DNA of 64,000 bases from the IMG/VR virus record IMGVR_UViG_3300045988_150439, one strand, 5' to 3'. A program made the translations under genes and the position numbers. Shown piece by piece: positions 767 to 59,821 of this stretch. Source of the stretch: a virus (Duplodnaviria; Heunggongvirae; Uroviricota; Caudoviricetes). Position 1 is the first letter of the stretch. Every line of letters begins with the position of its first letter. The notes beneath the pieces are model-generated. The model was not told where the DNA came from. It saw only the letters and a list, made by a program, of their open reading frames with translations, and did not search any database.

Positions 767-789
767 GGGGCCGAGCGCCCCGTTTTATT
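767..789 (+). terminator. rho-independent terminator
   Basis: Hairpin ggggc-cgagc-gcccc followed by gtttta, directly after the fibre stop codon. Confidence 0.6.
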
Positions 790-802
790 GGGTAGGATGA
801 AA

Positions 803-1087
803 ATGGATATAACACCTTTCCTTCATGCGCTTTGTGCTGTGGCTGCGCAGCTACTGATTGGTCTTTTTACCGGGAACTGGGCTTACGGGGCGATAGCCGG
901 TTGTACGTTCTTCATTGCGCGTGAACACACCCAGGCAGAATATCGCTGGATTGAAATGTTCGGGCATGGCAAGCGTATGAATATGCCGTGGTGGGGCGGT
1001 TTTGATCCGCGCGCTTGGGATGTGGCAAGTCTGATGGATTTTGCGATTCCACTTTTAGCGTGCACATTATTATATATTTTTATTTAA
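803..1087 (+). CDS. small hydrophobic membrane protein (holin/antiholin candidate)
   Basis: ORF 788..1087; ATG at 803 follows AGGA. Product is largely hydrophobic with 2-3 likely TM segments. Confidence 0.45.
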   Translation: MDITPFLHALCAVAAQLLIGLFTGNWAYGAIAGCTFFIAREHTQAEYRWIEMFGHGKRMNMPWWGGFDPRAWDVASLMDFAIPLLACTLLYIFI

Positions 1088-1268
1088 TATAAGATTAACT
1101 GAGATATAGCTTACGCAAAGAAGGTAATAAATATAAAGAGAGATGTTCTGAGGTAATTTATTGTTGGTATTTAAGGTTATTTACAGATAGGTAAGTGCAT
1201 ACCTATATAAAAAAGATAAAATGTGATATAAATCCGCCATCCCGATTTGACTTTTCATGGAGGAAAAT

Positions 1269-1592
1269 ATGTCGAACGAGATGGCGGGCGTAACAACAGA
1301 GCAAGTTGAGCGCATTGCCGCGATCGTTGCTCGGGAGGTTGTCGGCAAATTAGGTAAAGAGCTACGTGAAGAAATTGGCCAGGAGGTCAACGATCAGCTG
1401 AAAACCTACTTTGGTGATATGACCCCGGCGCAACATAGTATTCAACACTCCAACCTGGACAAACTCCTTAACCGGTTAGATTCCATCTCCAGTGGGTTCT
1501 TTGGCGGCATTGTTTCTAAAATAACGTCGTTCATTATTACCGCACTGCTTTTGGGGTTAGCCGCGTATGGCGTGAAAAATGGACTGCAATAA
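1269..1592 (+). CDS. hypothetical protein with C-terminal transmembrane anchor
   Basis: ORF 1257..1592; ATG 1269 lies 5 nt after GGAGG. C-terminal ITSFIITALLLGLAAYGV is a TM helix. Confidence 0.45.
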   Translation: MSNEMAGVTTEQVERIAAIVAREVVGKLGKELREEIGQEVNDQLKTYFGDMTPAQHSIQHSNLDKLLNRLDSISSGFFGGIVSKITSFIITALLLGLAAYGVKNGLQ

Positions 1593-1605
1593 CAGGAGAT
1601 CAAGG

Positions 1606-2298
1606 ATGCAGACTCCGAGAGGCATTCGTAATAATAACCCCGGTAATCTGGATAAAGGATCACCGTGGCAAGGTCTGGTTGCGAATCCAGACGAACCGCG
1701 CTTTTGCACGTTTAAAGACCCTGTTTGGGGGATTCGTGCGCTGGCGGTGACTCTAATTACCTACCACGATAAACGTCGCGCAAAAGACGGCTCAAGTATC
1801 GATACCATTCGTGAAGTTATTGAACGCTGGGCACCGCCGAATGAAAACAATACTGACGCCTACATTAATGAGGTGTCTAAAGCCGTTGGTGTAACCGCAG
1901 ACATGATCATCGATCTGCATGATTACGACATCCTTCGACCTTTAGTTGAGGCAATCATTCGCCACGAGAATGGCCGAGGCCCGCTAAAAACGCTGAACAC
2001 CTGGTATGCGGCAGAAGTTATTGAGGAAGGTCTGCGTCGAGCTGGCGTTGTTAAGCCGGTGAAAACCGTGAAGGCTGTTCCTGTAACTAAAGAAACCGCA
2101 GGCGCAACTGTTACAGCAGGTATTGGTCTGGCGCAGCTGGCCGATGTTATGCCGCAGGTTTCCGCTGCTATGGATAAAGCACAAGGTCATATCTCTAGCG
2201 GGGATACAGTACGCATCATCTTCGGTATTGCCACTATTGTTGTGGCAGGATTCATTGCCTGGTCGCAGGTAAGAAAACACCAGAAAGGGATGGTCTAA
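1606..2298 (+). CDS. membrane-anchored protein of unknown function in endolysin position of a lysis-like cluster
   Basis: ORF 1579..2298; probable ATG 1606 after AGGAG. N-terminal RNNNPGN motif, C-terminal TM helix; no catalytic motif recognised. Confidence 0.4.
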   Translation: MQTPRGIRNNNPGNLDKGSPWQGLVANPDEPRFCTFKDPVWGIRALAVTLITYHDKRRAKDGSSIDTIREVIERWAPPNENNTDAYINEVSKAVGVTADMIIDLHDYDILRPLVEAIIRHENGRGPLKTLNTWYAAEVIEEGLRRAGVVKPVKTVKAVPVTKETAGATVTAGIGLAQLADVMPQVSAAMDKAQGHISSGDTVRIIFGIATIVVAGFIAWSQVRKHQKGMV

Positions 2299-2299
2299 T

Positions 2300-2551
2300 A
2301 TGCTAGGCAGCCTGATGACAAAGCTAAAAGTTGCTTTGATTACGCTGGCTGCCGTTCTTTTCGTTCTTGTCGGCGCTTACACGATGGGCGGGAATGCGGC
2401 GCGACGAGCAATGGAAGAGAAGGCAAAACAGGAAGACAGAAAACGACTTCAAAACACAGTGAAAGTGGTGAATGAGACGAGCAGTAAAATACGTCAGAAA
2501 GATGCTTCTGCCGTTCATCGTGAGTTGTATGATAAGTGGGTGCGTCATTAA
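2300..2551 (+). CDS. i-spanin-like (Rz-like) membrane protein
   Basis: N-terminal TM helix then charged region; 3' end overlapped out of frame by a lipoprotein gene. Confidence 0.45.
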   Translation: MLGSLMTKLKVALITLAAVLFVLVGAYTMGGNAARRAMEEKAKQEDRKRLQNTVKVVNETSSKIRQKDASAVHRELYDKWVRH

Positions 2552-2687
2552 ACCACAAACAGCCAGCGTGTTGTTCTGCGATGGGGCTGAGCCTATCTAT
2601 ATCAGCAATAATGATGTAATGACTGAAGAAACCGAACGCCAAATCCTTTTTCACAATACGATGGGAGAGAGGGTTTGTGGTTGGTGA
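2472..2687 (+). CDS. o-spanin-like (Rz1-like) lipoprotein
   Basis: Signal peptide with lipobox ISGC; overlaps the 3' end of the upstream gene in another frame (Rz/Rz1 arrangement). Confidence 0.45.
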   Translation: MRRAVKYVRKMLLPFIVSCMISGCVIKPQTASVLFCDGAEPIYISNNDVMTEETERQILFHNTMGERVCGW

Positions 2688-2719
2688 TGTCGAAGTTCCC
2701 CTCAAATGAGGGGAACACA

Positions 2720-3241
2720 TTATTCTTCGAACAATTTTTCGATAGATTTTGTAGGATAGAACAAAGAACGCTCGTTGTTACCAACCAGCTGGATAAAGCC
2801 TAAACTTTTATAAAACGCCTTGGCTTTGTCATTTAACGCCTCAACGAAAAGTCCATGAATGCCTACAGCAAGAGATGCATTGTACACAACGCGCATTGCA
2901 TGTGTTACAAGCATTGAGCCAAATCCTTGACCTTGAAGGGACTTGTCCAAAGCCAGCCTACCCAAAGTAACACTTGGAACATTCCGATAAGGAACCTTCT
3001 TTTGTTTGCTTCTTGAAGGTAAGGACTCCTTTTCAAAACAACTACCTGACAAAGTGTAATATCCTAACACTTTTGGCCTTTCTTCTTGAGTGCAAAGCAC
3101 ATAAGCACGAAGAATTTTTCCCTCATGCTGCCTTTTTAAGTGGTTGGCTAAAAAGGCGTTTAGTGACTCTTCGCCGCAATCAAAACCGTTTAGATCATAA
3201 TCTTTCTCTCCAGAGAAAATCTCTATCGTTGTATTGCTCAC
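2720..3241 (-). CDS. GNAT-family acetyltransferase toxin (TacT/AtaT-like)
   Basis: 173 aa, GNAT motif QGQGFGSMLV; GTG start 8 nt after the stop of a DUF1778-type gene on the same strand. Confidence 0.7.
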   Translation of the reverse strand: MSNTTIEIFSGEKDYDLNGFDCGEESLNAFLANHLKRQHEGKILRAYVLCTQEERPKVLGYYTLSGSCFEKESLPSRSKQKKVPYRNVPSVTLGRLALDKSLQGQGFGSMLVTHAMRVVYNASLAVGIHGLFVEALNDKAKAFYKSLGFIQLVGNNERSLFYPTKSIEKLFEE

Positions 3242-3248
3242 GAGTAAA

Positions 3249-3518
3249 CTACTCCATGCTTTTCAGACGATCAGCAGCTCGTTTCAGCTTGTCGTTCGGT
3301 GCCGGAGGATTGCTTATAGCGTCCATAACCAGATTCCAGGATTCTTCATTCAGAACTAGTCTACGGTGTTGCTCTATAACTTTCACGGCACGTTCAGATG
3401 CACTGCTAACCATAAACTGAGTAATGCTCTGGTTAGACATTGCGGCAGCTTCCTCGATGATGCTTTTATCGTCATCGGTTAATCTCAAATCGATGCGCTG
3501 CTTTTTTAGTGCTGACAT
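3249..3518 (-). CDS. DUF1778-type ribbon-helix-helix antitoxin (TacA/AtaR-like)
   Basis: ORF 3249..3557; probable ATG 3518 follows GGAGG. About 89 aa with KKQRIDLRL strand then helices and PPAPN tail; precedes the GNAT gene. Confidence 0.65.
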   Translation of the reverse strand: MSALKKQRIDLRLTDDDKSIIEEAAAMSNQSITQFMVSSASERAVKVIEQHRRLVLNEESWNLVMDAISNPPAPNDKLKRAADRLKSME

Positions 3519-3836
3519 GTATTCCTCCTGATGGCCGTGATATAGGAAGGCCATCAATCTCCTCTGTTCAAACTGAGTTTTCGACTCAAAAATTACTTTA
3601 AAAGGCTATAGCCCATTACGTGTGCATTATCAAATTGTGTACGGCATATCACCGTACTTGTAATATAGAGGTCATTGTTACTTTTTTCAACAGGCAAATA
3701 CAAGCAATGATTGCCAATTGTTAACCACAACCTACCATTTTACCTTTACACCGCAGCCGTAGGCATTTAGGCTATATCACATATAAGAAAACAAGTTGTT
3801 TCAGACGATAATTATATACGCAAAGGGAACTCTCCA

Positions 3837-4890: not shown

Positions 4891-4915
4891 TATATGAATT
4901 AAAGGATTGATACTA

Positions 4916-6610
4916 ATGGAATCGATAGAATCATTTCTAAAAAATTTTCTAGTTTCAGATCATCGGGTTGCCGTCATAAAAGGAGATTGGGGCGTTGGTA
5001 AAACTCATTATTGGAATAGTTTTTATACTAAGCATTCTGAAGGATTAGATTTTAATGCATATTCGTATGTTTCTTTGTTTGGGGTTAACTCTATTGGTGA
5101 TATTAAAAAAACTCTTTATCATTGTGCCACACCAATTAATGAAAAGAAATATAAAGAACTAATTTTATCTGAAACGGATCGAACTATGATTCGTTATAGA
5201 AATGGGTTTTGGGGATGGTTGAAATACAACTCCTTGTCAAAATTTTTAATACATTTCGGAAAGAACGATTTTTTTGGGTTCAAAACAGATAACCTGCTGT
5301 CATCTCTTGAGTATAAATTTGTTAATAATTATTTGGTTTGTATTGATGATGTTGAAAGAAAAGGTAATTCGCTAGAAGTTAAAGAAATTATGGGGGTAAT
5401 TGATGAATTAGCAAGAAGAAAAGGTTGCAAAGTTGTTCTAATTTTAAATGAAGATAATTTACATGATGAAACTGCAAAAAAACAGTTTTTAGAGTACAGA
5501 GAAAAAGTAATTGATGTCGAAATAAAATACGATCCTACGCCTGAGAAGAACTTACGTAAAGTTTTTTATGAAACTGATTCTGATTTTCTTTTGTTAAAAG
5601 TCTTAGCAAATGACTTAGGCATTAAAAATATCCGTATATTAAATAAAATAAAAACATCTCTGGTTAATCTTAGGAATGAGCTAAGCTTGGCAGAGGATAA
5701 GGTTAGAGAAAGTTTTATCAATAGATTGGTTCTGTTTTCAGTGGTTTACTATTCTGGTGTTCCAGGTGTTGATTATGCCTTGTTTAAAGAATCAATTAAA
5801 AACATACATGTATTTGATTACATGTTAGATGATAAAAAGGATGATTCTGTATATTCATTTATTAATAGTCTTGATATTATTTATGAACGAGCGGAAATTG
5901 CTTTCGATGATGACATAGATTTTTATCTCAAGAATGGTTATCTTTCTACTGAAAGCAATATTCGAGGTATAATAGAAGAAAAAAATAAACAATATAAAGA
6001 ACACAAGGCTTTATGTGAGGTTAACAATGTTTGGGATATTTTTAGTGACTCATTCAAGGACAATGAATCTGAGTTTATTTCTAAGATAAAATGTGTAATT
6101 AACGACAATCTTTCACACATACCTGTTGCTCACTTCATAGGCTTGATTGATATCTTAAATAGATTGTTGATTGATTGTGATAGTTATATAGAGGCATATG
6201 CAGATGCCTTTGTTAGCCAAGATGATGCTTATACTGCTTTTCGGAATTTGTATGTAGAGATATTTGGTAACGAAAAGTTAGGTCTGCTAATTCAAAAAAA
6301 ATTGATGGATAAGAAGCCTGAAGAGACTAATTTAGAGAATGTTTTATACAAAATAATTGAAGGCAAATTTAATCATAGTGACATAGCATATCTTAACAGT
6401 TTCTCTGAAGATGATTATTTAAAGTGGATATTATCCCGCAATCAGGATGCTTTGGATTTAGTGAGAAAGGGGTTGCTCAGATTCAAAAGTATGCAAGAAC
6501 TAACAGAAGAACAGCAAAAAATCACGAATAAAGCAATAGGTGCATTAACGAAACTGGCCTCTAGATCAAGTCTTAACAAACTACGTGTGAGCAGATTGCT
6601 TAATAATTAA
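4916..6610 (+). CDS. KAP-family P-loop NTPase
   Basis: ORF 4907..6610; ATG 4916 follows AAAGGA. Walker A GDWGVGKTHYW near N-terminus, DDVER Walker B-like; coding region clearly AT-rich relative to neighbours. Confidence 0.6.
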   Translation: MESIESFLKNFLVSDHRVAVIKGDWGVGKTHYWNSFYTKHSEGLDFNAYSYVSLFGVNSIGDIKKTLYHCATPINEKKYKELILSETDRTMIRYRNGFWGWLKYNSLSKFLIHFGKNDFFGFKTDNLLSSLEYKFVNNYLVCIDDVERKGNSLEVKEIMGVIDELARRKGCKVVLILNEDNLHDETAKKQFLEYREKVIDVEIKYDPTPEKNLRKVFYETDSDFLLLKVLANDLGIKNIRILNKIKTSLVNLRNELSLAEDKVRESFINRLVLFSVVYYSGVPGVDYALFKESIKNIHVFDYMLDDKKDDSVYSFINSLDIIYERAEIAFDDDIDFYLKNGYLSTESNIRGIIEEKNKQYKEHKALCEVNNVWDIFSDSFKDNESEFISKIKCVINDNLSHIPVAHFIGLIDILNRLLIDCDSYIEAYADAFVSQDDAYTAFRNLYVEIFGNEKLGLLIQKKLMDKKPEETNLENVLYKIIEGKFNHSDIAYLNSFSEDDYLKWILSRNQDALDLVRKGLLRFKSMQELTEEQQKITNKAIGALTKLASRSSLNKLRVSRLLNN

Positions 6611-13696: not shown

Positions 13697-14086
13697 AAAC
13701 ATGGTGATAAGTATTTACTTACTTATCTTTTATGTATAAGATGACTTTGTTTTCGTTGAGACGCGACTGTTTGAACTTAAATACAAGTGCAAACGAAGAA
13801 GTCTATCTGGCAGTAGCCTAATAAGCCAAACACCAGCGAGGTCAGTTTCCAGCCTCGTTACCGAAATGGGACACACTGAGCGAGTGTGATTGCAGAACGC
13901 AGGAGGGAACATTCATGTTCCCTCCGATGAAGTAACAGAATGGGCGGTTGGTATATTTTCAACTCCATATGACTCCCGGATTCTTAGCCACTGACCGCCC
14001 ATCCTGTTACGTCATTTTGTTCAATTATGTCGTTTATACTGGGTTAAAAAGCGGCGACGTAGCCCGGCTGGTATGGTTAGCCAGCA

Positions 14087-14208
14087 CACAACGTTGAGGC
14101 CATTACATTTTTATCAATTCTAAGGTTCTATTCACAGAGATACCGGCGAGCGTTGATATGTAACATGTTGGGCAAACATTCAATCGGAGTAGTGGCCTCA
14201 ACGTTGTG
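14087..14208 (+). ncRNA. long hairpin unit 0 (possible small stable RNA)
   Basis: Perfect 16-bp inverted repeat cacaacgttgaggcca / tggcctcaacgttgtg enclosing ~90 nt; ORF-free region upstream of tRNAs. Confidence 0.3.
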
Positions 14209-14474
14209 AAGACGGGATTGTTGTGTAGGTTTAACCACTGTTGCCATTGGTGCCTGTTTTCACAACAAATGATTCCATACATCACATTGTATAAATTACA
14301 AAGTAGGTGCTGTCCTCAGAAACATCATCTACTTAAAGATTTTGCCTTCTACTATTGAGCGAAGTCGAAAGCGTCTGGCACTAACGAAAAGTGCAAGTAG
14401 CGGTGCGTTTCCTGGCAGAAACTAAACCGTCGCGATTGGCACTGTTGAGTAATAAATACTGGCAGTGCTGAATT

Positions 14475-14549
14475 GATGGTGTAGCTCAGCGGTAGAGCAG
14501 TTGGCTGTTAACCAACTGGTCGGTGGTTCGAATCCACCCACCATCGCCA
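14475..14549 (+). tRNA. tRNA-Asn (anticodon GTT)
   Basis: Cloverleaf by eye: acceptor gatggtg/caccatc, D-arm gctc..gagc, anticodon stem gttgg/ccaac loop ctGTTaa, T-arm ggtgg-ttcgaat-ccacc, encoded CCA. Confidence 0.85.
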
Positions 14550-14551
14550 AT

Positions 14552-14627
14552 GCCGGTTTAGCTCAGTTGGTAGAGCACCTGCCTTGTAAGCAGGATGTCA
14601 GCGGTTCGATCCCGTTAACCGGCACCA
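14552..14627 (+). tRNA. tRNA-Thr (anticodon TGT)
   Basis: Acceptor gccggtt/aaccggc, anticodon stem cctgc/gcagg loop ctTGTaa, T-loop ttcgatc, encoded CCA. Confidence 0.85.
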
Positions 14628-14720
14628 ACACAACAGGTAAGAGCATTGGGCGAATCGGCGATACTGACCCACAAGCCCGTAAATCGATAGAGTCAGACCA
14701 GTGCTCTTACCGTTGTGAGG
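14626..14720 (+). ncRNA. long hairpin unit 1 (possible small stable RNA)
   Basis: 15-bp stem acaacaggtaagagca / tgctcttaccgttgt (one mismatch) enclosing ~55 nt; shares stem-base cacaac/gttgtg with units 0 and 2. Confidence 0.3.
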
Positions 14721-14764
14721 AAGTGCAGCTCTTTGAAGCAACCAGAAGATAAGCATCTGGCTTC

Positions 14765-14850
14765 ACAACACAACGATAAGATCATTACGGTTAATCGTCG
14801 TTCATGTGCACAATGACTGGTCGAAAGGTAGTGATCTTACCGTTGTGATG
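14765..14850 (+). ncRNA. long hairpin unit 2 (possible small stable RNA)
   Basis: 16-bp stem cacaacgataagatca / tgatcttaccgttgtg (one mismatch); 3' flank cttaccgttgtga[g/t]gaa shared with unit 1. Confidence 0.3.
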
Positions 14851-14947
14851 AATGCACAGGCTGATGTGCCGCAACTACAGTAGTGCGCGCTTTGCGGGGC
14901 TTGCTACAACCCTGTGTCGGAGTTCAGCACCGACCATCACAATAGCT

Positions 14948-15034
14948 GGAGAGTAGGGAGCATGGTGCTCAAGCGGTCTTGAAAACCGTCCCATTGCGCA
15001 AGCGATGATGGTTCGATTCCATTACTCTCCGCCA
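14948..15034 (+). tRNA. tRNA-Ser (anticodon TGA), type II
   Basis: Acceptor ggagagt/actctcc, anticodon stem gcggt/accgt loop ctTGAaa, long variable arm, T-loop ttcgatt, encoded CCA; about 87 nt. Confidence 0.75.
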
Positions 15035-15148
15035 GACACAGCGTTGAGCGGTTTGGCCTTTTAATCACCCAGATTAAGACTCCGCTAACATAAACCAGAC
15101 CGCTCAACGCTGTGATAGACAATTACGGCAGACGTTCTTAACCATAGC

Positions 15149-15177
15149 TTGCTAACATCCTAGCAACACTTTTTTTC
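15149..15177 (+). terminator. rho-independent terminator after tRNA cluster
   Basis: Hairpin ttgcta-acatcc-tagcaa followed by cacttttttt. Confidence 0.55.
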
Positions 15178-15189
15178 AGCGCAAAATTC

Positions 15190-15210
15190 AAAGGGGCTTC
15201 GGCCCCTTTT
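15190..15210. terminator. bidirectional terminator hairpin
   Basis: aaaggggc-ttcg-gcccctttt, flanked by A/T runs on both strands, between plus-strand tRNAs and the minus-strand cassette. Confidence 0.55.
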
Positions 15211-15212
15211 CT

Positions 15213-16424
15213 TCAAAAAAGTTTTATAAATTCATAATTCTGGTCAATTAAGGATTCAATACACACCATGCAAAAATCTACATCGTTAAAATCAGGTGTG
15301 TAATATTCATCCTCATAACATTCATTTAGACCTTCAATCAATTTTTCTTTAAAAACTCCCCACGTTTCAATATGAACCATTTCCATATAAGGCGCATGTG
15401 TATGTACTTGCAATACATCCCAGGTGTCTATAACCTCGATCCGCGGCTTGCAATTAATTTTTTCTAAATATGCCCTCCCAGAATTGTAAATTTTCGACAT
15501 TGATGCCCCAAAACCTGATGGTTGGTAATGAGTGTAAATGTCATAAATTTTTTGTCCTATTCTAGGGAGTTGAGAAGCATTGGATATTTGTGGCGAATGA
15601 AAGTATCGCTCTATGGAAGAAAACGCAGAAACATTAACTAGAGTAATCGTATATGGTGCTAAAGTTCTCTCGTTCAAATTTCTACATAAAATAGCAAACC
15701 CATGGCTATTAGTCTTTTCACCGTCTGAGGACATTTTTGCCATGCTGGCTTTAATAACATTCAATTTCGAATGTAAACGAGAAGTGGAAGTCGGTTGATT
15801 ATACATTTCATCATCATACAAACATATATGAAACCCGCCAAGATGACGAAATGAGAACTTGAGTGCTTCTTCCGCAATAACTAATTTATTAATATCTAAA
15901 GGAGTAAGTGATACGTTACCTTGTAAATCATAGCAAGGTTCTAAACATAGAAAGTTTTTCTTCTGCCACACAATCATATTAAAAATAAAGTGTCTAACCA
16001 AAGGTGGCCAGTCAGGTGATATAAGTACATTGGTAATATCTCCATCAGACAAGTATGACAAGTAACTTTTTAGTTCCGCAGCATATGCCACTAGCTCAGT
16101 TCCAGCTTCCCTTGTTGGTGTTGAAAAATTTTTTAACTCAATAAGAACTAAGGATTCATTCTCTGTTGAATAAGCAACGACATCAGGTCTTAATATCTCA
16201 GATTTTGTTGCTGAGATATTTTCATCATCTGTCATTAAATGTAACAATGTTATATTCTTTAAACAAAACTGATAACTCTCCTTAATTTTTTTCTCTTCGG
16301 GTCTTTTCGGATTAAATTCATTTAATTTATCAATATTGATGATTGAATTATATAATCCATCTTGATCAGATAATTTGTCAATTATCCAATTTTGCATTTC
16401 CTTTTCGCTTAAAAATATTGACAC
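15213..16424 (-). CDS. 403-aa protein with PD-(D/E)xK-like nuclease motif; distal gene of AT-rich two-gene cassette (AbiGii position)
   Basis: GTG start; PDVVAY...SLVLIELK resembles a D..ExK restriction-endonuclease-fold motif; very AT-rich; 26 nt from upstream gene. Confidence 0.45.
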   Translation of the reverse strand: MSIFLSEKEMQNWIIDKLSDQDGLYNSIINIDKLNEFNPKRPEEKKIKESYQFCLKNITLLHLMTDDENISATKSEILRPDVVAYSTENESLVLIELKNFSTPTREAGTELVAYAAELKSYLSYLSDGDITNVLISPDWPPLVRHFIFNMIVWQKKNFLCLEPCYDLQGNVSLTPLDINKLVIAEEALKFSFRHLGGFHICLYDDEMYNQPTSTSRLHSKLNVIKASMAKMSSDGEKTNSHGFAILCRNLNERTLAPYTITLVNVSAFSSIERYFHSPQISNASQLPRIGQKIYDIYTHYQPSGFGASMSKIYNSGRAYLEKINCKPRIEVIDTWDVLQVHTHAPYMEMVHIETWGVFKEKLIEGLNECYEDEYYTPDFNDVDFCMVCIESLIDQNYEFIKLF

Positions 16425-16450
16425 TAATTAGGCTCCCGTTAAACCAAAAA

Positions 16451-17272
16451 TTAAAAATCTTGCTTTACTTTATCCATAGTCAGAATTTTGCTAATAATTG
16501 AAGATTCAAATCCATCTAAACCTGAGAGAAAGTTAATTAGCTTTTGGATATGTTGTTCTTTAGGTATAAGTATATATTTTATATCATTGAACTCAAAATC
16601 AATGCCAAACTTTGAAAATTTTGAGCTAATTTTTGCTTTGTCATCAGAAGTGATAACACGCTCCAAACTCAGACTAGGCCATAAATCACCAATAAAAGGA
16701 GCTGGCACATAACGCCACTCTTTCTCGTCTGCATATATATAATTCTCTATTGTTTTATTATCTTTTCGCTCTAGCTTGCCTCTGTAATTTTTCATATAAC
16801 GCAGTAAATTATATAGATCAGAATATTCTGCTTTCAATTTCTCAAACTCTATTCTGTTTTTGGTATCTAAATTTCCTCTAGCCTTCCAAAGCGGCACCAA
16901 CTTTTTTTTAATAAGTCGAATTCTGGCATTGTATTTAGAAAATATTTCACTGCTCTTATTCATATATAGAACTGGGTGTAGACCTTTCTTTTCCGCCCAA
17001 GACTTAGTTAGCCCAAGACCGAATTCCCCATATTTTCCGCTATGATCTCTGATTTGTGATAGTTTTATGTCACAAAACGATACCATTGGTACTGCAAACC
17101 TCCTGCGTCCCCCGACTCCTCTTATTTCCTCGCGAGCAAGAAATGGTTTAAAATATTTCTCAGCCAATATGCTATAGAAAGCATCTTCGTTTTTTGTAAA
17201 ATGAAACAACGTGGTTGGATGAAGACTATAAACAGATTCAACATTCGCATCAGGATTTTCAAGGATAGTCAT
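16451..17272 (-). CDS. AbiGi-like protein (candidate abortive-infection component)
   Basis: ORF 16451..17317; probable ATG 17272 follows AAGGTG. N-terminal LFHFTKNEDAFYSIL...PMVSFCDIKL...YGEFGLGL pattern resembles what I recall of AbiGi proteins; AT-rich. Confidence 0.4.
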   Translation of the reverse strand: MTILENPDANVESVYSLHPTTLFHFTKNEDAFYSILAEKYFKPFLAREEIRGVGGRRRFAVPMVSFCDIKLSQIRDHSGKYGEFGLGLTKSWAEKKGLHPVLYMNKSSEIFSKYNARIRLIKKKLVPLWKARGNLDTKNRIEFEKLKAEYSDLYNLLRYMKNYRGKLERKDNKTIENYIYADEKEWRYVPAPFIGDLWPSLSLERVITSDDKAKISSKFSKFGIDFEFNDIKYILIPKEQHIQKLINFLSGLDGFESSIISKILTMDKVKQDF

Positions 17273-17561
17273 TTTACACCTTGTGGAAAGCCAGTTTAGT
17301 TCTGTAAATAGTATCACACGACAGGCGGCTATTCTTCTATCAATAAAGGATAGGTAAGCACTTACTTTTTACGCGCGTTAATTGTATAGTTCTTTCGGAT
17401 ACTCACTTGAAAGGACTCAATATGGGAAATAAATGTAAACATGCGCGTCGCGCATCTCGTCAGGTGCAGAAGTCAAATCCATACATTCACGAGCACTACC
17501 ACCTCAGCTCTTTCACTAACCGCTACACGTTCCCCAGCGAAGCGCATAACGAGGCAAGGCA

Positions 17562-17807
17562 ATGACGATCACTATCTACGGACGAGATAACTGCTCATAC
17601 TGCAAACGTGCGGTCGAGCTGGCGAAGCAACTAAAGGGACATGGCTACGGTGATTATGAGTACATCGACATCACCACTGCCGGTATCGACAAGAAAAAAC
17701 TAAGTGAAATTGTTGGTAAACCGGTAGAGACTATCCCCCAGGTACTGATCGATGGCCAACCGATTGGCGGATACACAGAATTTGCTGCTTTTGCGAGCAC
17801 TCTGTAA
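17562..17807 (+). CDS. glutaredoxin-like redoxin
   Basis: 81 aa; CSYC active site near N-terminus; thioredoxin-fold size. Confidence 0.7.
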   Translation: MTITIYGRDNCSYCKRAVELAKQLKGHGYGDYEYIDITTAGIDKKKLSEIVGKPVETIPQVLIDGQPIGGYTEFAAFASTL

Positions 17808-17815
17808 TACAATAC

Positions 17816-17842
17816 GGCTCCTTTTGGGGCCATTTATTATTT
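17816..17842 (+). terminator. rho-independent terminator
   Basis: ggctcc-tttt-ggggcc hairpin followed by atttattatttg. Confidence 0.5.
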
Positions 17843-17902
17843 GTAGCTTTCATCAGCACAGCGTACACTTAGTTACGAGCCATTGAGTAGTTAAGAGGTT
17901 TT

Positions 17903-18511
17903 ATGCGTTTAGAAAATTGCCTAGAAGATATGAGTGTCATTAGCAATGCCCTTGCTACTGTGACCTCTAACGCTTCACGCTTTTCAAACGCAAAGCCTAC
18001 AGCTAAATCTGGGCGTGATTTTATTGAACCGCGTGGATATCGACGCTTCCGTGGCACGATGAAGCCCTCTGCGAAATTCACAGGATTCAAAACACAAACC
18101 TATGTGAGCACTGCGGCTATTCCTGTTCAAGAGAACCGCGATGCGGCACAGCTGGCAAAGATTGAAAGCAAGCTCGCAAAATTGACGGCGAAACACGTTC
18201 GCTTAGCCCATGCCATCTCTGGATGGAAAGCGGAAAAGATTCGCAGCAACTTCGGTGAAAGTCGTTACGAAGAACTGAAGAACGTTGACCTGACCATTCG
18301 TGGTTTGGAGGGATTCGTTAACAAGTTGATTCGCGACTCTGAGCAACCTCATCCATATTTGAAACGCTTGAGCGATTCTGTAACTGAGTATCGTTTAGCT
18401 ATCTCTGATCTGCTATTGATTTTAAATCAGTGTTTTAACGACGTAAACGTCATCGAATCGCAGACTGGCCTCATTGATGAGGACGTCTTCGCCAACTTCT
18501 CATTCCATTGA
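17903..18511 (+). CDS. hypothetical protein (possible antitoxin partner of downstream YafO-like gene)
   Basis: 202 aa ORF, Ala/Lys-rich central helix; ends 10 nt before the downstream gene. Confidence 0.4.
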   Translation: MRLENCLEDMSVISNALATVTSNASRFSNAKPTAKSGRDFIEPRGYRRFRGTMKPSAKFTGFKTQTYVSTAAIPVQENRDAAQLAKIESKLAKLTAKHVRLAHAISGWKAEKIRSNFGESRYEELKNVDLTIRGLEGFVNKLIRDSEQPHPYLKRLSDSVTEYRLAISDLLLILNQCFNDVNVIESQTGLIDEDVFANFSFH

Positions 18512-18520
18512 GGTTGAACG

Positions 18521-18931
18521 ATGAAGATCACATGGAACAGTGATAGTTACGCCCAATTTTTAAAGCCGACCTTCGATATAAAGCCTGACTTAGAGATTAC
18601 GTTACTCAACGATTTCAAGTCGTTTAAACAAGGCATGTACCCAGCCCTATTCGGCAAAGATGGCCCGTATACGGCTCCTGGTGCTATCGTGTCCTCCCGC
18701 GTTTATCACGTTCATCTCTTGTTCACGAAGCAAGAACGAACCAGCAGCCGCAGCAGATTCAATTGCACAAGCGACCGTGCACTCGTTTACAGTCAACATG
18801 CACATTTCCAAGATGTGTATAGCCTATTGGCAATCTTCCCTAACAACGCACATCAGTACGCGAAAGATCCAAAAATTATGGTCGATATCGCTGCCTACGC
18901 GGCCGCATTTCAAGCTCTCACTAACCCTTAA
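18521..18931 (+). CDS. YafO-like toxin candidate
   Basis: 136 aa; FKSFKQGMYPALFGKDG, VYHVHLLF, ALVYSQHAHF, LLAIFPNNAH blocks resemble my recollection of E. coli YafO. Confidence 0.4.
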   Translation: MKITWNSDSYAQFLKPTFDIKPDLEITLLNDFKSFKQGMYPALFGKDGPYTAPGAIVSSRVYHVHLLFTKQERTSSRSRFNCTSDRALVYSQHAHFQDVYSLLAIFPNNAHQYAKDPKIMVDIAAYAAAFQALTNP

Positions 18932-19104
18932 CAATCATATTAATAACGCCTCAGAATTTAAATTCCTCCCTTAAATGATTCCATACCTACTATGTATGGA
19001 ATCATTACTAAAAATGAGTTACTTTGACTCTTGATCCTATAAGAATCTATGCCTAATATACTGTTTACTTATACAGTGTATCGGCGTAACTCGGTGATTG
19101 TCAT

Positions 19105-20208
19105 ATGAAAAATAGCTTTGACAGAGCACGCGCAGCGGAGAACACCTCAAAAGAGGCGATTGAGTATCTCGAAAGAGCATCTCAAATGCAGGCCGTTATG
19201 ATCTCGCAGGTTAGCAATGACATGAGATTCTCAGACGCATTCATGTTATTCACTCGCTTATCTCTGCTAATAACAAGACGTCGGCCAGAGATCGCTGTTC
19301 ACTGTATTTTGATACATGTTTTGCCGCACATTGCTGATGTAAAAGTAAGTGACATTAATAGGTTCATGGTGAACCAACTGGTCAACCCACTAATACTGGA
19401 TGGCAAAATTGTTATGGGCCGCCGCGTTTTCTCTCTGATGAAGCAGTTCCTTAGCTGGTGCGCCTTCCAGGGGATGATAGACGTGTCACCGTTAAACGAT
19501 ATGTCACTTAACAAAGTTGCCGGTGGCGCAAAGCCCACACCTCGCGAGCGGAAGCTGACCGACGCAGAGGTATGGGTGTTCTGGAATATATGGGACTACT
19601 TCAATGTGTGTGCTGGTACAAAATGGGCGGCAAGGCTATGTCTTGTATCCGCAAGACGACCTGATGAAGTACTGCGGGCTAAAAAAAGTGAGTTCAATCT
19701 TAAGCGTGGGGTTTGGAATCAAGGCAAAAGAAACAAGTCAGCACGTGAGCATTCGCTGCCTTTAAGCACATTAATGCGCACATGCATTGAAGAGTTGTTC
19801 GAATACGGTAAAGATAGCCAGTGGCTCGTTCCTTCGAATAAAAAAATCGGGAAAGACCTTCCTATGTCTAAAGTGGCAATAGCCCAGGCATTACGTCGTA
19901 TTCTGGAACGACCAGAACTGATGGAGCTTGAGCCATTTACACCCCGAGATTTGCGCCGTACTGCGCGTAGTTACTTCCCAGCATTAGGCATAAGCCAGGA
20001 GGTATCACGTAAAATCATGAACCACAGTCTTGAGGGGATAGATCGGGTCTACGACCGGCACGATTATATGGACGAGATGCGAGACGCCTTAGAAAGTTTC
20101 TCGACGTACATCGCATCAATCGTAGAGCAACCGGATTTAGACGAAATTGACCACAAATTTAAGGGAGATCGTCTATCAACAGAGCTTATTCGTGTAAATT
20201 TTTCATAG
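19105..20208 (+). CDS. tyrosine site-specific recombinase
   Basis: 367 aa; C-terminal catalytic region with RDLRRTARS, HSLEG, and Tyr motif VYDRHDY. Confidence 0.7.
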   Translation: MKNSFDRARAAENTSKEAIEYLERASQMQAVMISQVSNDMRFSDAFMLFTRLSLLITRRRPEIAVHCILIHVLPHIADVKVSDINRFMVNQLVNPLILDGKIVMGRRVFSLMKQFLSWCAFQGMIDVSPLNDMSLNKVAGGAKPTPRERKLTDAEVWVFWNIWDYFNVCAGTKWAARLCLVSARRPDEVLRAKKSEFNLKRGVWNQGKRNKSAREHSLPLSTLMRTCIEELFEYGKDSQWLVPSNKKIGKDLPMSKVAIAQALRRILERPELMELEPFTPRDLRRTARSYFPALGISQEVSRKIMNHSLEGIDRVYDRHDYMDEMRDALESFSTYIASIVEQPDLDEIDHKFKGDRLSTELIRVNFS

Positions 20209-20589
20209 AGACTTTATGGCCTCAACAACCTTTTGTGATGCGCCTTTCTCTTTACCGAATCGCTCGTTATATGCAGCAAGAACCTGTTTTTCGTCCTCGT
20301 TAAGAGGAGCAGTGCCTTCTTTGTATAAAAATGCTGCGAGTTCGGGTTGACGTTCTTCCAGCACCATCATCATAAGACGACTTGGCTCAATACCCAGTGC
20401 CAGCGCCAGCGGACGAACCTTATCGATAGGCAAAGGAATTTTGCCGCTTTTAATTAAAGAAAGGTTGTTGGCGTTTTTATACCCAATTGTTTTGGCTATC
20501 TGGGCCTGGCTCATAGGTGAGGATTCAATCAACCCTGCGATAAAAGCAGCGTAGCGACTTTCTATAAATTCAATCTTGTTATCAGACAT
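20203..20589 (-). CDS. helix-turn-helix DNA-binding regulator (XRE-like)
   Basis: 128 aa; HTH segment MSQAQIAKTIGYKNANNLSLIKSG; convergent with recombinase gene. Confidence 0.6.
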   Translation of the reverse strand: MSDNKIEFIESRYAAFIAGLIESSPMSQAQIAKTIGYKNANNLSLIKSGKIPLPIDKVRPLALALGIEPSRLMMMVLEERQPELAAFLYKEGTAPLNEDEKQVLAAYNERFGKEKGASQKVVEAIKSL

Positions 20590-20840
20590 GGTTACAACCT
20601 TTGCGCGTTCAATTCTCTCTGGTAAGTGCTTACCGATATTACATCAAAGGTTAGGGTTGTAAAGCTATTATCATTTTTTTCGATAGGCACTTAAAATACC
20701 GGTTAAAGGCCATTGCACGGAGAAAAATTAGCCCAAAATAGGTAAGAAAATCAACTTTCATATGATATGAATGTATTCAGTATTGATACAAATTTTAGTA
20801 GTATTCCTTACCATAGTATAAGTTAGAATGGATTGATTGA

Positions 20841-59395: not shown

Positions 59396-59821
59396 ATGTT
59401 AGGTTTATTCAAAAAGAAAACTCGTAAAGCTGTTATCGAGGTCAAAAAAATGGAGAACCGAGATGCGGTTGAAGCCACCGTGTGGGGCGCGTACATGATC
59501 TCCTATGCCGATGGCACATGCGACGCAAAGGAAATTTCCATTCTTGAGAAAACAATTGCAGCTCTGCCTGCGTTTTCTCCGTTTGCTGGTGAGATTGCCC
59601 AAATGAGCGCCAATATCCGTGCTCAATACGAAGCCTCACCGCGCCGCGCTAATGCCCAGGCTTTACGTGAGCTGGCTGATGTGGCCGGGACTAATGATGC
59701 AGTAGATGTACTGTGTCTGTGCCTTGATATTGCCGACCAAGACGGTATTGGCGAACAAGAAGAGCTGGCCCTGAAAAAGATCGCACAGGCGCTTCAGTTG
59801 TCACTGGATGCTTATCTCTAA
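59396..59821 (+). CDS. hypothetical protein (TerB-like?)
   Basis: 141 aa; helical with YADGTCDAKEISILE and DIADQDGIGEQEELALKKI segments reminiscent of TerB-type domains; conserved aaaggaaagcacATG context. Confidence 0.35.
   Translation: MLGLFKKKTRKAVIEVKKMENRDAVEATVWGAYMISYADGTCDAKEISILEKTIAALPAFSPFAGEIAQMSANIRAQYEASPRRANAQALRELADVAGTNDAVDVLCLCLDIADQDGIGEQEELALKKIAQALQLSLDAYL

Follow-up and report, generated by a model that had tools for sequence, protein, structure and literature searches.

Near the start of the window (the whole stretch of viral DNA that we analysed, 64,000 nucleotides), we found five open reading frames and two terminator-like hairpins:

767..781, + strand: GC hairpin, terminator-like, 3' of a tail-fibre gene, which it divides from the DNA that follows
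797..1087, + strand: small membrane protein of 96 aa (phrog_1443, no assigned function), in a mobile tail-fibre-tip module
1269..1592, + strand: putative holin of 107 aa, so named from its gene position (phrog_5093)
1606..2298, + strand: endolysin of the Enc34/M4Lys type, 230 aa, with a PHA02564 domain and a C-terminal membrane module (phrog_873)
2300..2551, + strand: i-spanin (Rz-like), 83 aa (phrog_1026)
2472..2687, + strand: o-spanin (Rz1-like) lipoprotein precursor, 71 aa (phrog_1275)
2695..2716, + strand: terminator-like hairpin with a 9 bp stem, between convergent Rz1 and kacT-like genes, which closes the cassette

The last four genes match PHROG families, with E = 8e-69 (phrog_5093, a family without an assigned function), 2e-88, 7e-25, and 1e-24, in gene order. 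At the DNA level, the block as a whole shares 79-99% identity with SSU5-like phage-plasmids. Given the PHROG matches and this identity, the features of the cassette are not due to chance. Over the cassette, the nearest relatives are Escherichia phages Cyrano (98.7% DNA identity) and PhiR41_1 (93.7%). The window is collinear with SSU5 from 25.8 to 84.6 kb, and both Cyrano and SSU5 annotate the cassette genes as Holin, Endolysin, Rz, and Rz1. We conclude, with a probability of roughly 0.92, that positions ~1269-2716 are the late lysis cassette of an SSU5-like phage-plasmid of Enterobacteriaceae, with four genes and an endolysin of the Enc34/M4Lys type. Nothing counts against the identification of the cassette or of the endolysin. 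This is an ordinary four-gene cassette of a type that is already known, and the enzyme family has been characterised and crystallised. A sigma-70 promoter scan of the AT-rich spacer at 1088-1256 found no promoter-like site.

The original prediction had drawn a lysis cluster from 788 to 2687. A lysis cluster with spanin-type overlapping genes is borne out, but its start is not: the cassette proper covers ~1269-2716, and ORF 797-1087 lies outside it. In lambdoid phages, homologues of this ORF are found directly 3' of side-tail-fibre genes (for instance, CPT_21_24 of phage 21, a "putative membrane protein"), and none had lysis-annotated neighbours in the records that we inspected. The block at 89-1044 is up to 96.8% identical in DNA to lambdoid phages. 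We rejected ORF 797-1087 as a holin: it travels with lambdoid tail-fibre tips and is missing from SSU5 and Cyrano, though both have the same lysis cassette.

At the other end of the cassette, the i-spanin has a transmembrane (TM) helix at residues ~9-31 that is followed by a charged, helical periplasmic part, as expected of this class. A motif after the TM helix is common to homologues in other lineages. The protein has the same length as Chi gp004, with weak similarity (E = 0.015). The o-spanin begins with a lipoprotein signal, MRRAVKYVRK-MLLPFIVSCM-ISG|C, in which a basic N-terminal region is followed by a hydrophobic core and by the lipobox ISGC (2532-2543). After processing, 48 aa would remain, starting with Cys-Val; with no Asp at +2, the mature protein lacks an inner-membrane retention residue. 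The o-spanin is 40% identical to Chi gp005 (E = 1e-18), and its ISGC aligns to VSGC in Chi. [quoted passage not shown] We assign the pair to the two-component "Chi" family, with the overlapped architecture; SSU5 is already listed in that family (Kongari et al. 2018, PMC6139136). The Rz/Rz1-like overlap with an ISGC lipobox, which had been taken to mark a lysis cassette, is thus present and is backed by the PHROG and Chi gp005 matches. The o-spanin gene had been described as embedded, and here only the overlap holds: because it runs 136 nt past the Rz stop, "overlapped" is the right term.

The endolysin has these features:

1627..1647, + strand: RNNNPGN motif, residues 8-14, of which N11, P12, G13, and N14 are invariant in family alignments
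1828..1968, + strand: catalytic signature from alignment, Trp75 (1828-1830), Tyr86 (1861-1863), and Glu121 (1966-1968)
2035..2094, + strand: Lys/Arg-rich linker, residues 144-163, with family mean charges of +5.2 and -1.4
2095..2175, + strand: helix A, residues 164-190, weakly hydrophobic, 52% Gly/Ala/Ser/Thr, and highly conserved
2209..2295, + strand: helix B (residues 202-222, the true TM anchor, from hydropathy; AlphaFold2 has a helix at 199-226) and the basic tail RKHQKGMV

Judged by its sequence, the product of 1606-2298 is a member of the Enc34/M4Lys (PHA02564) endolysin family. It is similar to the ORF39 endolysin of Hafnia phage Enc34 (PDB 7Q47; Cernooka et al. 2022, PMC8943055), with a phmmer E value of 2.8e-54. 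With M4Lys, which is gp38 of Salmonella phage BSPM4 (Bai et al. 2020, PMC7143992; BLASTP E = 2e-91), it shares 56% identity from end to end, the membrane module included; with SSU5 gp27, which is annotated as an endolysin, it shares 94%. The N-terminal catalytic domain (residues ~1-148) is a PHA02564 glycosidase that matches the all-helical fold of 7Q47, which resembles the alpha-lobe of lysozyme. Its Trp75, Tyr86, and Glu121 align with Trp79, Tyr95, and Glu131 of Enc34, whose roles have been described (PMC8943055), and are invariant in 42 homologues. RNNNPGN is the same in 7Q47 and in 9vvp, the core protein of phage E1004. Both Enc34 ORF39deltaC and M4Lys devoid of its transmembrane domain have been shown to degrade peptidoglycan (PMC8943055, PMC7143992), and we infer from these homologues that the window endolysin cuts peptidoglycan as well.

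The original prediction correctly noted a C-terminal TM anchor and RNNNPGN in this protein, but it recognised no endolysin fold and no known lysin family. The match to 7Q47, the identity to M4Lys, and the conserved catalytic residues overturn that view. The difficulty is explained by two features of the family: Pfam-A and NCBIfam have no model for it, and its sequences resemble none of the classical families of lysozymes, amidases, or transglycosylases. Indeed, when the five ORFs were scanned against Pfam-A and NCBIfam, neither the holin nor the endolysin nor the spanins had a significant match. This lack of matches is what speaks for a lysin of a new, unassigned fold, but close homologues have a crystal structure and biochemistry, and we give that reading practically no chance.

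Another reading would make the gene a virion-associated or ejection peptidoglycan hydrolase instead of an endolysin. The same catalytic domain is also N-terminal in ejection or core, tape-measure, and head proteins (phrog_7182, phrog_2276, and phrog_992; 9vvp of phage E1004), and in some records homologues go by the names "virion protein", "structural protein P5", or "internal core protein"; for instance, the PhiR41_1 orthologue is an "internal (core) protein". This reading is very improbable, as the gene lies between the holin-position gene and the spanins, the small size and membrane module fit the endolysin subgroup only, and the orthologous M4Lys causes lysis from within. Also, SSU5 has no other annotated endolysin in positions 1-100,000. 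A separate endolysin elsewhere in the genome, which would have told against the gene's role in lysis, did not turn up: none is annotated in SSU5 positions 1-100,000, and a Pfam scan of ten window ORFs without SSU5 counterparts, or with weak ones, gave no lysin (two short unmatched ORFs were left out). The ten-ORF scan did find a KAP NTPase, AbiGi, a YafO toxin, an integrase, an HTH protein, and TerB.

The C-terminal ~65 residues of the endolysin form a membrane module: the basic linker, helix A, a short loop, TM helix B, and the basic tail. Strong hydrophobicity is confined to one stretch of the protein, residues ~196-223, which is followed by RKHQKGMV. By hydropathy, residues 1-195 contain no N-terminal hydrophobic or SAR segment, so this is not a typical SAR endolysin. 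Helix A has two acidic residues and one conserved Pro, and AlphaFold2 predicts a helix there with low confidence (pLDDT is below 50 for residues 164-178). A crude additive estimate on the Hessa scale gives about +7.7 kcal/mol for helix A and +0.9 for helix B. Across the family, both flanks are basic (net charge +3.7 for the linker and +2.3 for the tail), and helix A with the loop is net acidic. The invariant polar or small residues of the module are A167, G174, Q177, P183, A188, S198, A218, and Q221.

The homologues indicate what the module does. The membrane domain is required for lysis, and the full-length protein alone lyses E. coli (M4Lys, PMC7143992; Enc34, PMC8943055). Removing the last 13 residues of M4Lys abolishes lysis, azide does not block M4Lys lysis, the membrane domain alone is bacteriostatic, and co-expression of a Chi-type holin slows lysis slightly (PMC7143992). 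The same authors' topology prediction has the N-terminus outside and one TM helix. By analogy, the window endolysin presumably needs its membrane module too. The module alone retrieves 168 phage records, and nearly all of the annotated ones listed are endolysin or lysis-protein genes. An exhaustive phmmer search with the module against 1.84 billion representative proteins gave 24 matches, none clearly free-standing: these were full-length endolysins, apparent fragments, and a few weak matches in very long proteins. With neither a match to a PHROGs holin family nor a clear free-standing gene, the idea that the module is a captured holin is not supported.

The gene directly upstream of the endolysin begins at an ATG at 1269, with GGAGG 5 nt to its 5' side. 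The N-terminal ~75 aa of its 107-aa product are acidic and hydrophilic, and a single TM helix (~residues 81-102) is followed by five residues. As a small membrane protein encoded beside an endolysin gene, it has what is expected of a holin by position, and the orthologues in Cyrano and SSU5 are annotated as "Holin" or "putative holin". A charged hydrophilic C-terminal tail is typical of holins. The 107-aa protein has no such tail, and it matches no described holin family in Pfam, NCBIfam, or PHROGs. Nor is it significantly similar to the Chi/BSPM4 holin or to the protein upstream of the endolysin homologue in Alcaligenaceae, with which it shares a C-terminal TM layout. Only about 30 protein clusters make up the family. 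The long contigs among their sources measure ~100-134 kb, and several carry a plasmid label, which points to SSU5-like plasmids. By gene position alone, we consider the protein to be a putative holin. In BSPM4, blocking the holin delays lysis (PMC11657625), and by analogy the 107-aa protein may likewise control the timing of lysis.

How a C-terminally anchored enzyme is oriented and released is a question that is already in the literature. In outline, the PHA02564 domain would cut the glycan strand with the N-acetylglucosaminidase activity of its homologues, with Glu121 as the catalytic acid and Trp75 and Tyr86 positioning the substrate. The C-terminal module, which is indispensable for lysis from within in homologues, would tether the endolysin to the inner membrane. 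Once the wall was degraded, the spanin pair would disrupt the outer membrane. Both the holin-position protein and the endolysin of the SSU5-like group are tail-anchored, with a single true TM helix at the extreme C-terminus and no N-terminal signal.

For the route to the wall, we tentatively prefer a model to which we would give nearly even odds: the C-terminal module is a Sec-free hairpin, and the catalytic domain stays in the cytoplasm until the membrane is breached. The module would insert post-translationally, independently of Sec, with both ends in the cytoplasm. The catalytic domain would be held at the cytoplasmic face, and the wall would come within its reach only once the holin or, at high dose, the module itself had opened a breach in the membrane. 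The family-wide charge pattern, with a basic linker and tail around a net acidic helix A and loop, is consistent with this topology. Also, no signal peptide is needed for a hairpin whose external loop is short, which would account for the azide insensitivity. However, helix A is a poor TM segment by our crude estimate, AlphaFold2 confidence is low in this region, the M4Lys authors placed the N-terminus outside, and a tethered cytoplasmic enzyme must still cross the membrane. That placement of the N-terminus fits instead a C-terminal, SAR-like arrangement, in which helix B alone spans the membrane with the C-terminus inside, and a periplasmic but inactive catalytic domain is freed when the 107-aa protein, as a pinholin, depolarises the membrane. 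This is possible, if doubtful. Only helix B, with its basic tail, is a strong TM segment, helix A being too polar to span alone, and the overexpressed full-length protein lyses cells without a holin, like SAR endolysins. Such a model has been put forward for an endolysin of the same architecture, LysAP of Acidovorax phage AP1, whose lysis was delayed by 10 mM azide (PMC8879335). But M4Lys lysis is not blocked by azide, the window endolysin has no N-terminal signal or SAR segment, and there is no known export route for a ~160-residue N-terminal domain via a C-terminal signal (PMC8943055). The basic linker (+5) would also have to cross the membrane, contrary to the positive-inside rule.

It seems unlikely that the module is itself a holin-like pore former, so that the protein is a holin-endolysin fusion and the 107-aa protein is a timing regulator or antiholin. 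The behaviour of M4Lys (lysis by the enzyme alone, a bacteriostatic membrane domain, and slightly slower lysis with a Chi-type holin) would fit, and the invariant polar and small residues suggest specific helix packing; the 107-aa protein is an orphan without typical holin features. But searches of PHROGs and Pfam linked the module to no holin family, and the short library matches look like endolysin fragments and not like a free-standing module gene. Furthermore, the separate holin of BSPM4 arrests growth when expressed alone, and ORF52 suppression of the holin delays whole-cassette lysis (PMC11657625). The preferred hairpin could also be joined to this idea: lysis would bypass Sec wholly, with the hairpin endolysin (catalytic domain in the cytoplasm) as a built-in holin-like breach and the orphan 107-aa protein as its regulator. 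We regard this pathway as improbable. If true, it would be a new holin-endolysin logic; with both the family and its puzzle published before, this would count as a mechanistic advance and not as a discovery made from this window.

The endolysin family was described in 2019-2022, with biochemistry and a crystal structure, and the SSU5 orthologues are annotated as endolysin and spanins. The same catalytic domain is found in 792 phage records. In the literature, the architecture is described as restricted to Chi-like phages and their relatives. We also find it in plasmid prophages of the SSU5-like kind from many Enterobacterales, and in contigs of Pasteurella and Alcaligenaceae that are apparently chromosomal (putative prophages). 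Among the best 120 homologue clusters, all of the source names shown were uninformative, mostly "hypothetical protein". Because Pfam-A and NCBIfam have no model, scans, whether automated or by eye, will keep flagging this family as unknown.

Like the SAR endolysins (P1 Lyz and R21 of phage 21), the window endolysin is membrane-tethered and has a weakly hydrophobic, Gly/Ala-rich helix; for SAR endolysins and for the homologues of the window protein, overexpression alone can lyse cells. Unlike them, its anchor is C-terminal instead of N-terminal, it has no Sec-type signal, and its catalytic fold is unrelated. LysAP and HolAP of Acidovorax phage AP1 (PMC8879335) are similar in layout, with an endolysin of ~227 aa whose C-terminal TM is needed for lysis and an adjoining small holin with one TM. 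By its description, LysAP is set apart from the window endolysin, as its catalytic domain is reported to be GH24 (E15/D24/T30), which is a different family.

Compared with Enc34, the window catalytic domain lacks two short insertions (of 5 and 6 residues). By sequence, the window "holin" has no relation to the Chi-type holin, and it carries its TM helix at the C-terminus, whereas the Enc34 holin is described as having an N-terminal one. The host element is a ~108-kb phage-plasmid instead of a Chi-like siphovirus. The identity to M4Lys runs through helix A, the loop, helix B, and the basic tail, and BSPM4 has the same gene order of holin, endolysin, and spanins, with a holin of another family. 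Holin-free lysis, azide insensitivity, and glucosaminidase products are properties tested in M4Lys; the SSU5-group protein is known by its sequence. The closest system is SSU5 gp26-gp30 (NC_018843), an orthologous and collinear cassette (holin ~96%, endolysin 94%, Rz 76%, and Rz1 69% identity). The two differ in what surrounds the cassette. Upstream lie cor-like and membrane-protein genes in SSU5, but a lambdoid-type tail-fibre tip with ORF 797-1087 in the window; downstream, SSU5 has two hypothetical genes and the window a KacT/TacA-like toxin-antitoxin pair. As the SSU5 group pairs a C-anchored endolysin with a different putative "holin", it could serve as a comparison system.

The four genes at 1269-2687 are closely packed, all on the + strand (ORF listing and raw sequence), and they form a lysis cassette with a spanin-type overlap, as the original prediction held. 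In Escherichia phage Cyrano and Salmonella phage SSU5, the same four genes are annotated as holin, endolysin, Rz, and Rz1; this is an already-known system. The DNA of the block is 98.7% identical to Cyrano, 93.7% identical to PhiR41_1, and ~82% identical to SSU5. Also, SSU5 is collinear with the whole window (25.8-84.6 kb in SSU5). Judging from this identity and collinearity, the window comes from an SSU5-like phage-plasmid.

Features of the lysis region
101-760, + strand: 3' end of the tail-fiber gene, with a Peptidase_S74 chaperone domain
767-781, + strand: GC hairpin
797-1087, + strand: membrane-protein ORF, 96 aa
1269-1592, + strand: gene at the holin position, 107 aa
1606-2298, + strand: endolysin gene, 230 aa
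2300-2551, + strand: i-spanin (Rz-like) gene, 83 aa
2472-2687, + strand: o-spanin (Rz1-like) gene, 71 aa, overlapping the i-spanin gene by 80 nt in a different frame
2695-2716, + strand: terminator-like hairpin

The original prediction reported no recognizable endolysin fold, but the crystal structure and biochemistry already published for homologs refute this. The RNNNPGN motif and the C-terminal TM anchor that it described are both present, at residues 8-14 and within the protein's one strong hydrophobic segment (residues ~196-223). No model in Pfam-A (2025 copy) or NCBIfam release 20 matches the endolysin, whose catalytic domain is encoded at 1606-2049, which explains why it could not be placed. 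[quoted passage not shown] A structure for the catalytic domain has been available since 2021, yet these family databases have no matching model. Trp75, Tyr86, and Glu121 correspond to the published catalytic signature of the Enc34 protein (Trp79, Tyr95, and Glu131), and they are invariant across 42 homologs.

The endolysin is 94% identical to SSU5 gp27 and, over its full length, 56% identical to M4Lys, the endolysin of Salmonella phage BSPM4. Truncated to the catalytic domain, M4Lys and Enc34 ORF39 degrade peptidoglycan, while the full-length protein expressed alone is toxic or lytic; this effect requires the C-terminal membrane domain, and lysis is not blocked by sodium azide (PMC7143992; PMC8943055). 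M4Lys yields N-acetylglucosaminidase products (PMC7143992). The catalytic domain is found in 792 records of the phage collection, including ejection and core proteins (PDB 9vvp). The C-terminal module is found in 168 phage records, and in nearly all of the annotated records listed, the gene is labeled as an endolysin or lysis protein. None of the source names shown among the best 120 homolog clusters was informative; most read “hypothetical protein,” and a few read “membrane protein” or “virion protein.”

A separate endolysin elsewhere in the genome would have counted against the original prediction. No other lysin is annotated in SSU5 positions 1-100,000, and there is none among ten window ORFs with no or weak SSU5 counterparts (two short unmatched ORFs were left out). 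The products recognized among these ten were a KAP NTPase, AbiGi, a YafO toxin, an integrase, TerB, and an HTH protein. SSU5_101, at 86.9 kb in SSU5 and outside the window, is annotated as a “lysozyme inhibitor LprI family protein,” which is curious beside a lysozyme-like endolysin.

Accessory genes
2720-3557, - strand: GNAT acetyltransferase toxin (KacT/TacT-like, 173 aa) and TacA-like antitoxin (102 aa)
4907-6610: KAP-family P-loop NTPase, 567 aa, adjoining parA
15213-16424, - strand: 403-aa partner of the AbiGi-family protein
16451-17317, - strand: AbiGi-family protein, in the ~13,700-20,600 block
18521-18931: YafO-family toxin, preceded by a 202-aa ORF
19105-20208: tyrosine integrase
20203-20589, - strand: HTH protein
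59396-59821: TerB-domain protein, 141 aa

The GNAT/TacA-like pair sits between the lysis cassette and parA. Cyrano has such a pair, whereas SSU5 (1-100,000) has no counterpart and carries two hypothetical genes there instead. Neither the KAP NTPase nor the TerB-domain protein has a counterpart in SSU5 positions 1-100,000. The same is true of the block at ~13,700-20,600, which looks like an accessory island of defense and toxin-antitoxin genes.

The ORF at 797-1087 was rejected as a member of the cassette. SSU5 and Cyrano lack it, yet have the same cassette; SSU5 has cor-like and membrane-protein genes at this position. An AT-rich spacer lies between the ORF and the four-gene block (ORF listing and raw sequence). 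Its lambdoid-phage homologs, among them CPT_21_24 of phage 21 and those in HannyBb and Tritos, directly follow side-tail-fiber genes, and in the records inspected they do not adjoin lysis-annotated genes. Lambdoid E. coli phages of 42-50 kb (PhiR46_1, Tritos, 2G7b, and HannyBb) match positions 89-1044 with DNA identity of up to 96.8%, and the similarity ends at 1044. The tail-fiber tip (with its Peptidase_S74 intramolecular chaperone) and this ORF (phrog_1443) form one block. By these comparisons, the ORF is part of a mobile tail-fiber-tip module. The identity of the block suggests that an SSU5-like phage-plasmid and lambdoid phages recently exchanged a host-range module.

The i-spanin (phrog_1026) has an N-terminal TM segment, and the rest is charged and helical. 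The o-spanin (phrog_1275) has a lipoprotein signal ending in ISGC, as originally predicted. It is 40% identical to gp005 of phage Chi (E = 1e-18), with ISGC opposite Chi's VSGC lipobox and a shared C-terminal GER-x-CGW. SSU5, Chi, and Enc34 belong to one spanin family, and the Chi and Enc34 pairs are classed as “overlapped” (Kongari et al. 2018). The pair is therefore overlapped as well, and not embedded as had been proposed. Cyrano's Rz1 is annotated as 39 aa (5384-5503 in the Cyrano stretch compared; 2568-2687 in the window), without the signal peptide and lipobox. Aligning the protein with Chi gp005 favors the longer reading frame that begins at 2472, and Cyrano's short Rz1 probably has the wrong start. 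Such errors are common for o-spanins and are tabulated by Kongari et al. 2018.

The firm part of the mechanism is a sequence of three steps, in which the holin-position protein would act on the inner membrane, the membrane-tethered glycosidase endolysin on the wall, and the two-component spanin on the outer membrane. How the catalytic domain gets to the wall is an acknowledged question in the literature on this endolysin type. Across 33-42 homologs, both flanks of the membrane module are positive (net +3.7 for the linker and +2.3 for the tail), while helix A (residues 164-190) and the loop carry a net negative charge. Under the positive-inside rule, such a pattern agrees with a hairpin whose two ends are both cytoplasmic, and we tentatively favor a hairpin with a cytoplasmic catalytic domain (probability about 0.45). 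However, helix A is weakly hydrophobic (52% Gly/Ala/Ser/Thr in these homologs). A crude additive estimate on the Hessa et al. 2005 scale gave approximate values of +7.7 kcal/mol for helix A versus +0.9 for helix B, the TM anchor (residues 202-222). AlphaFold2 confidence is also low around helix A. Together, these weaken the hairpin and leave room for a single-span model with the N terminus outside. A SAR-like (signal-anchor-release) route, with a periplasmic catalytic domain, is a real but lesser possibility; such a model was also proposed for LysAP of Acidovorax phage AP1, which has a similar architecture. Other routes to the wall seem unlikely. No holin was detectably related to the membrane module, nor was the module found as a clear free-standing gene.

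The 107-aa protein is a putative holin by gene position alone. Its N-terminal ~75 residues are acidic and hydrophilic, and its lone TM segment is at the extreme C terminus. It matched no holin family in Pfam-A, PHROGs, or NCBIfam. Its family comprises only ~30 clusters, named “hypothetical protein” in every source; among its source contigs, the long ones span ~100-134 kb, and several are labeled as plasmids. The Chi/BSPM4 holin is unrelated and has its TM segment at the N terminus. Because BSPM4's separate holin arrests growth, and its suppression delays lysis by the cassette, a holin-controlled trigger is by analogy likely in vivo, whichever endolysin topology holds.

Full-length homologs of the endolysin, including the membrane module, are found on chromosomal-looking contigs (~450 kb) from Alcaligenaceae and Pasteurella (58% identity). 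Each of these loci has a small ORF upstream and Chi-type spanins downstream. In the Alcaligenaceae cassette, the upstream protein also has a C-terminal TM segment, but it shows no sequence similarity to the 107-aa protein. These homologs imply a broader distribution than the “Chivirus and relatives” of the literature.
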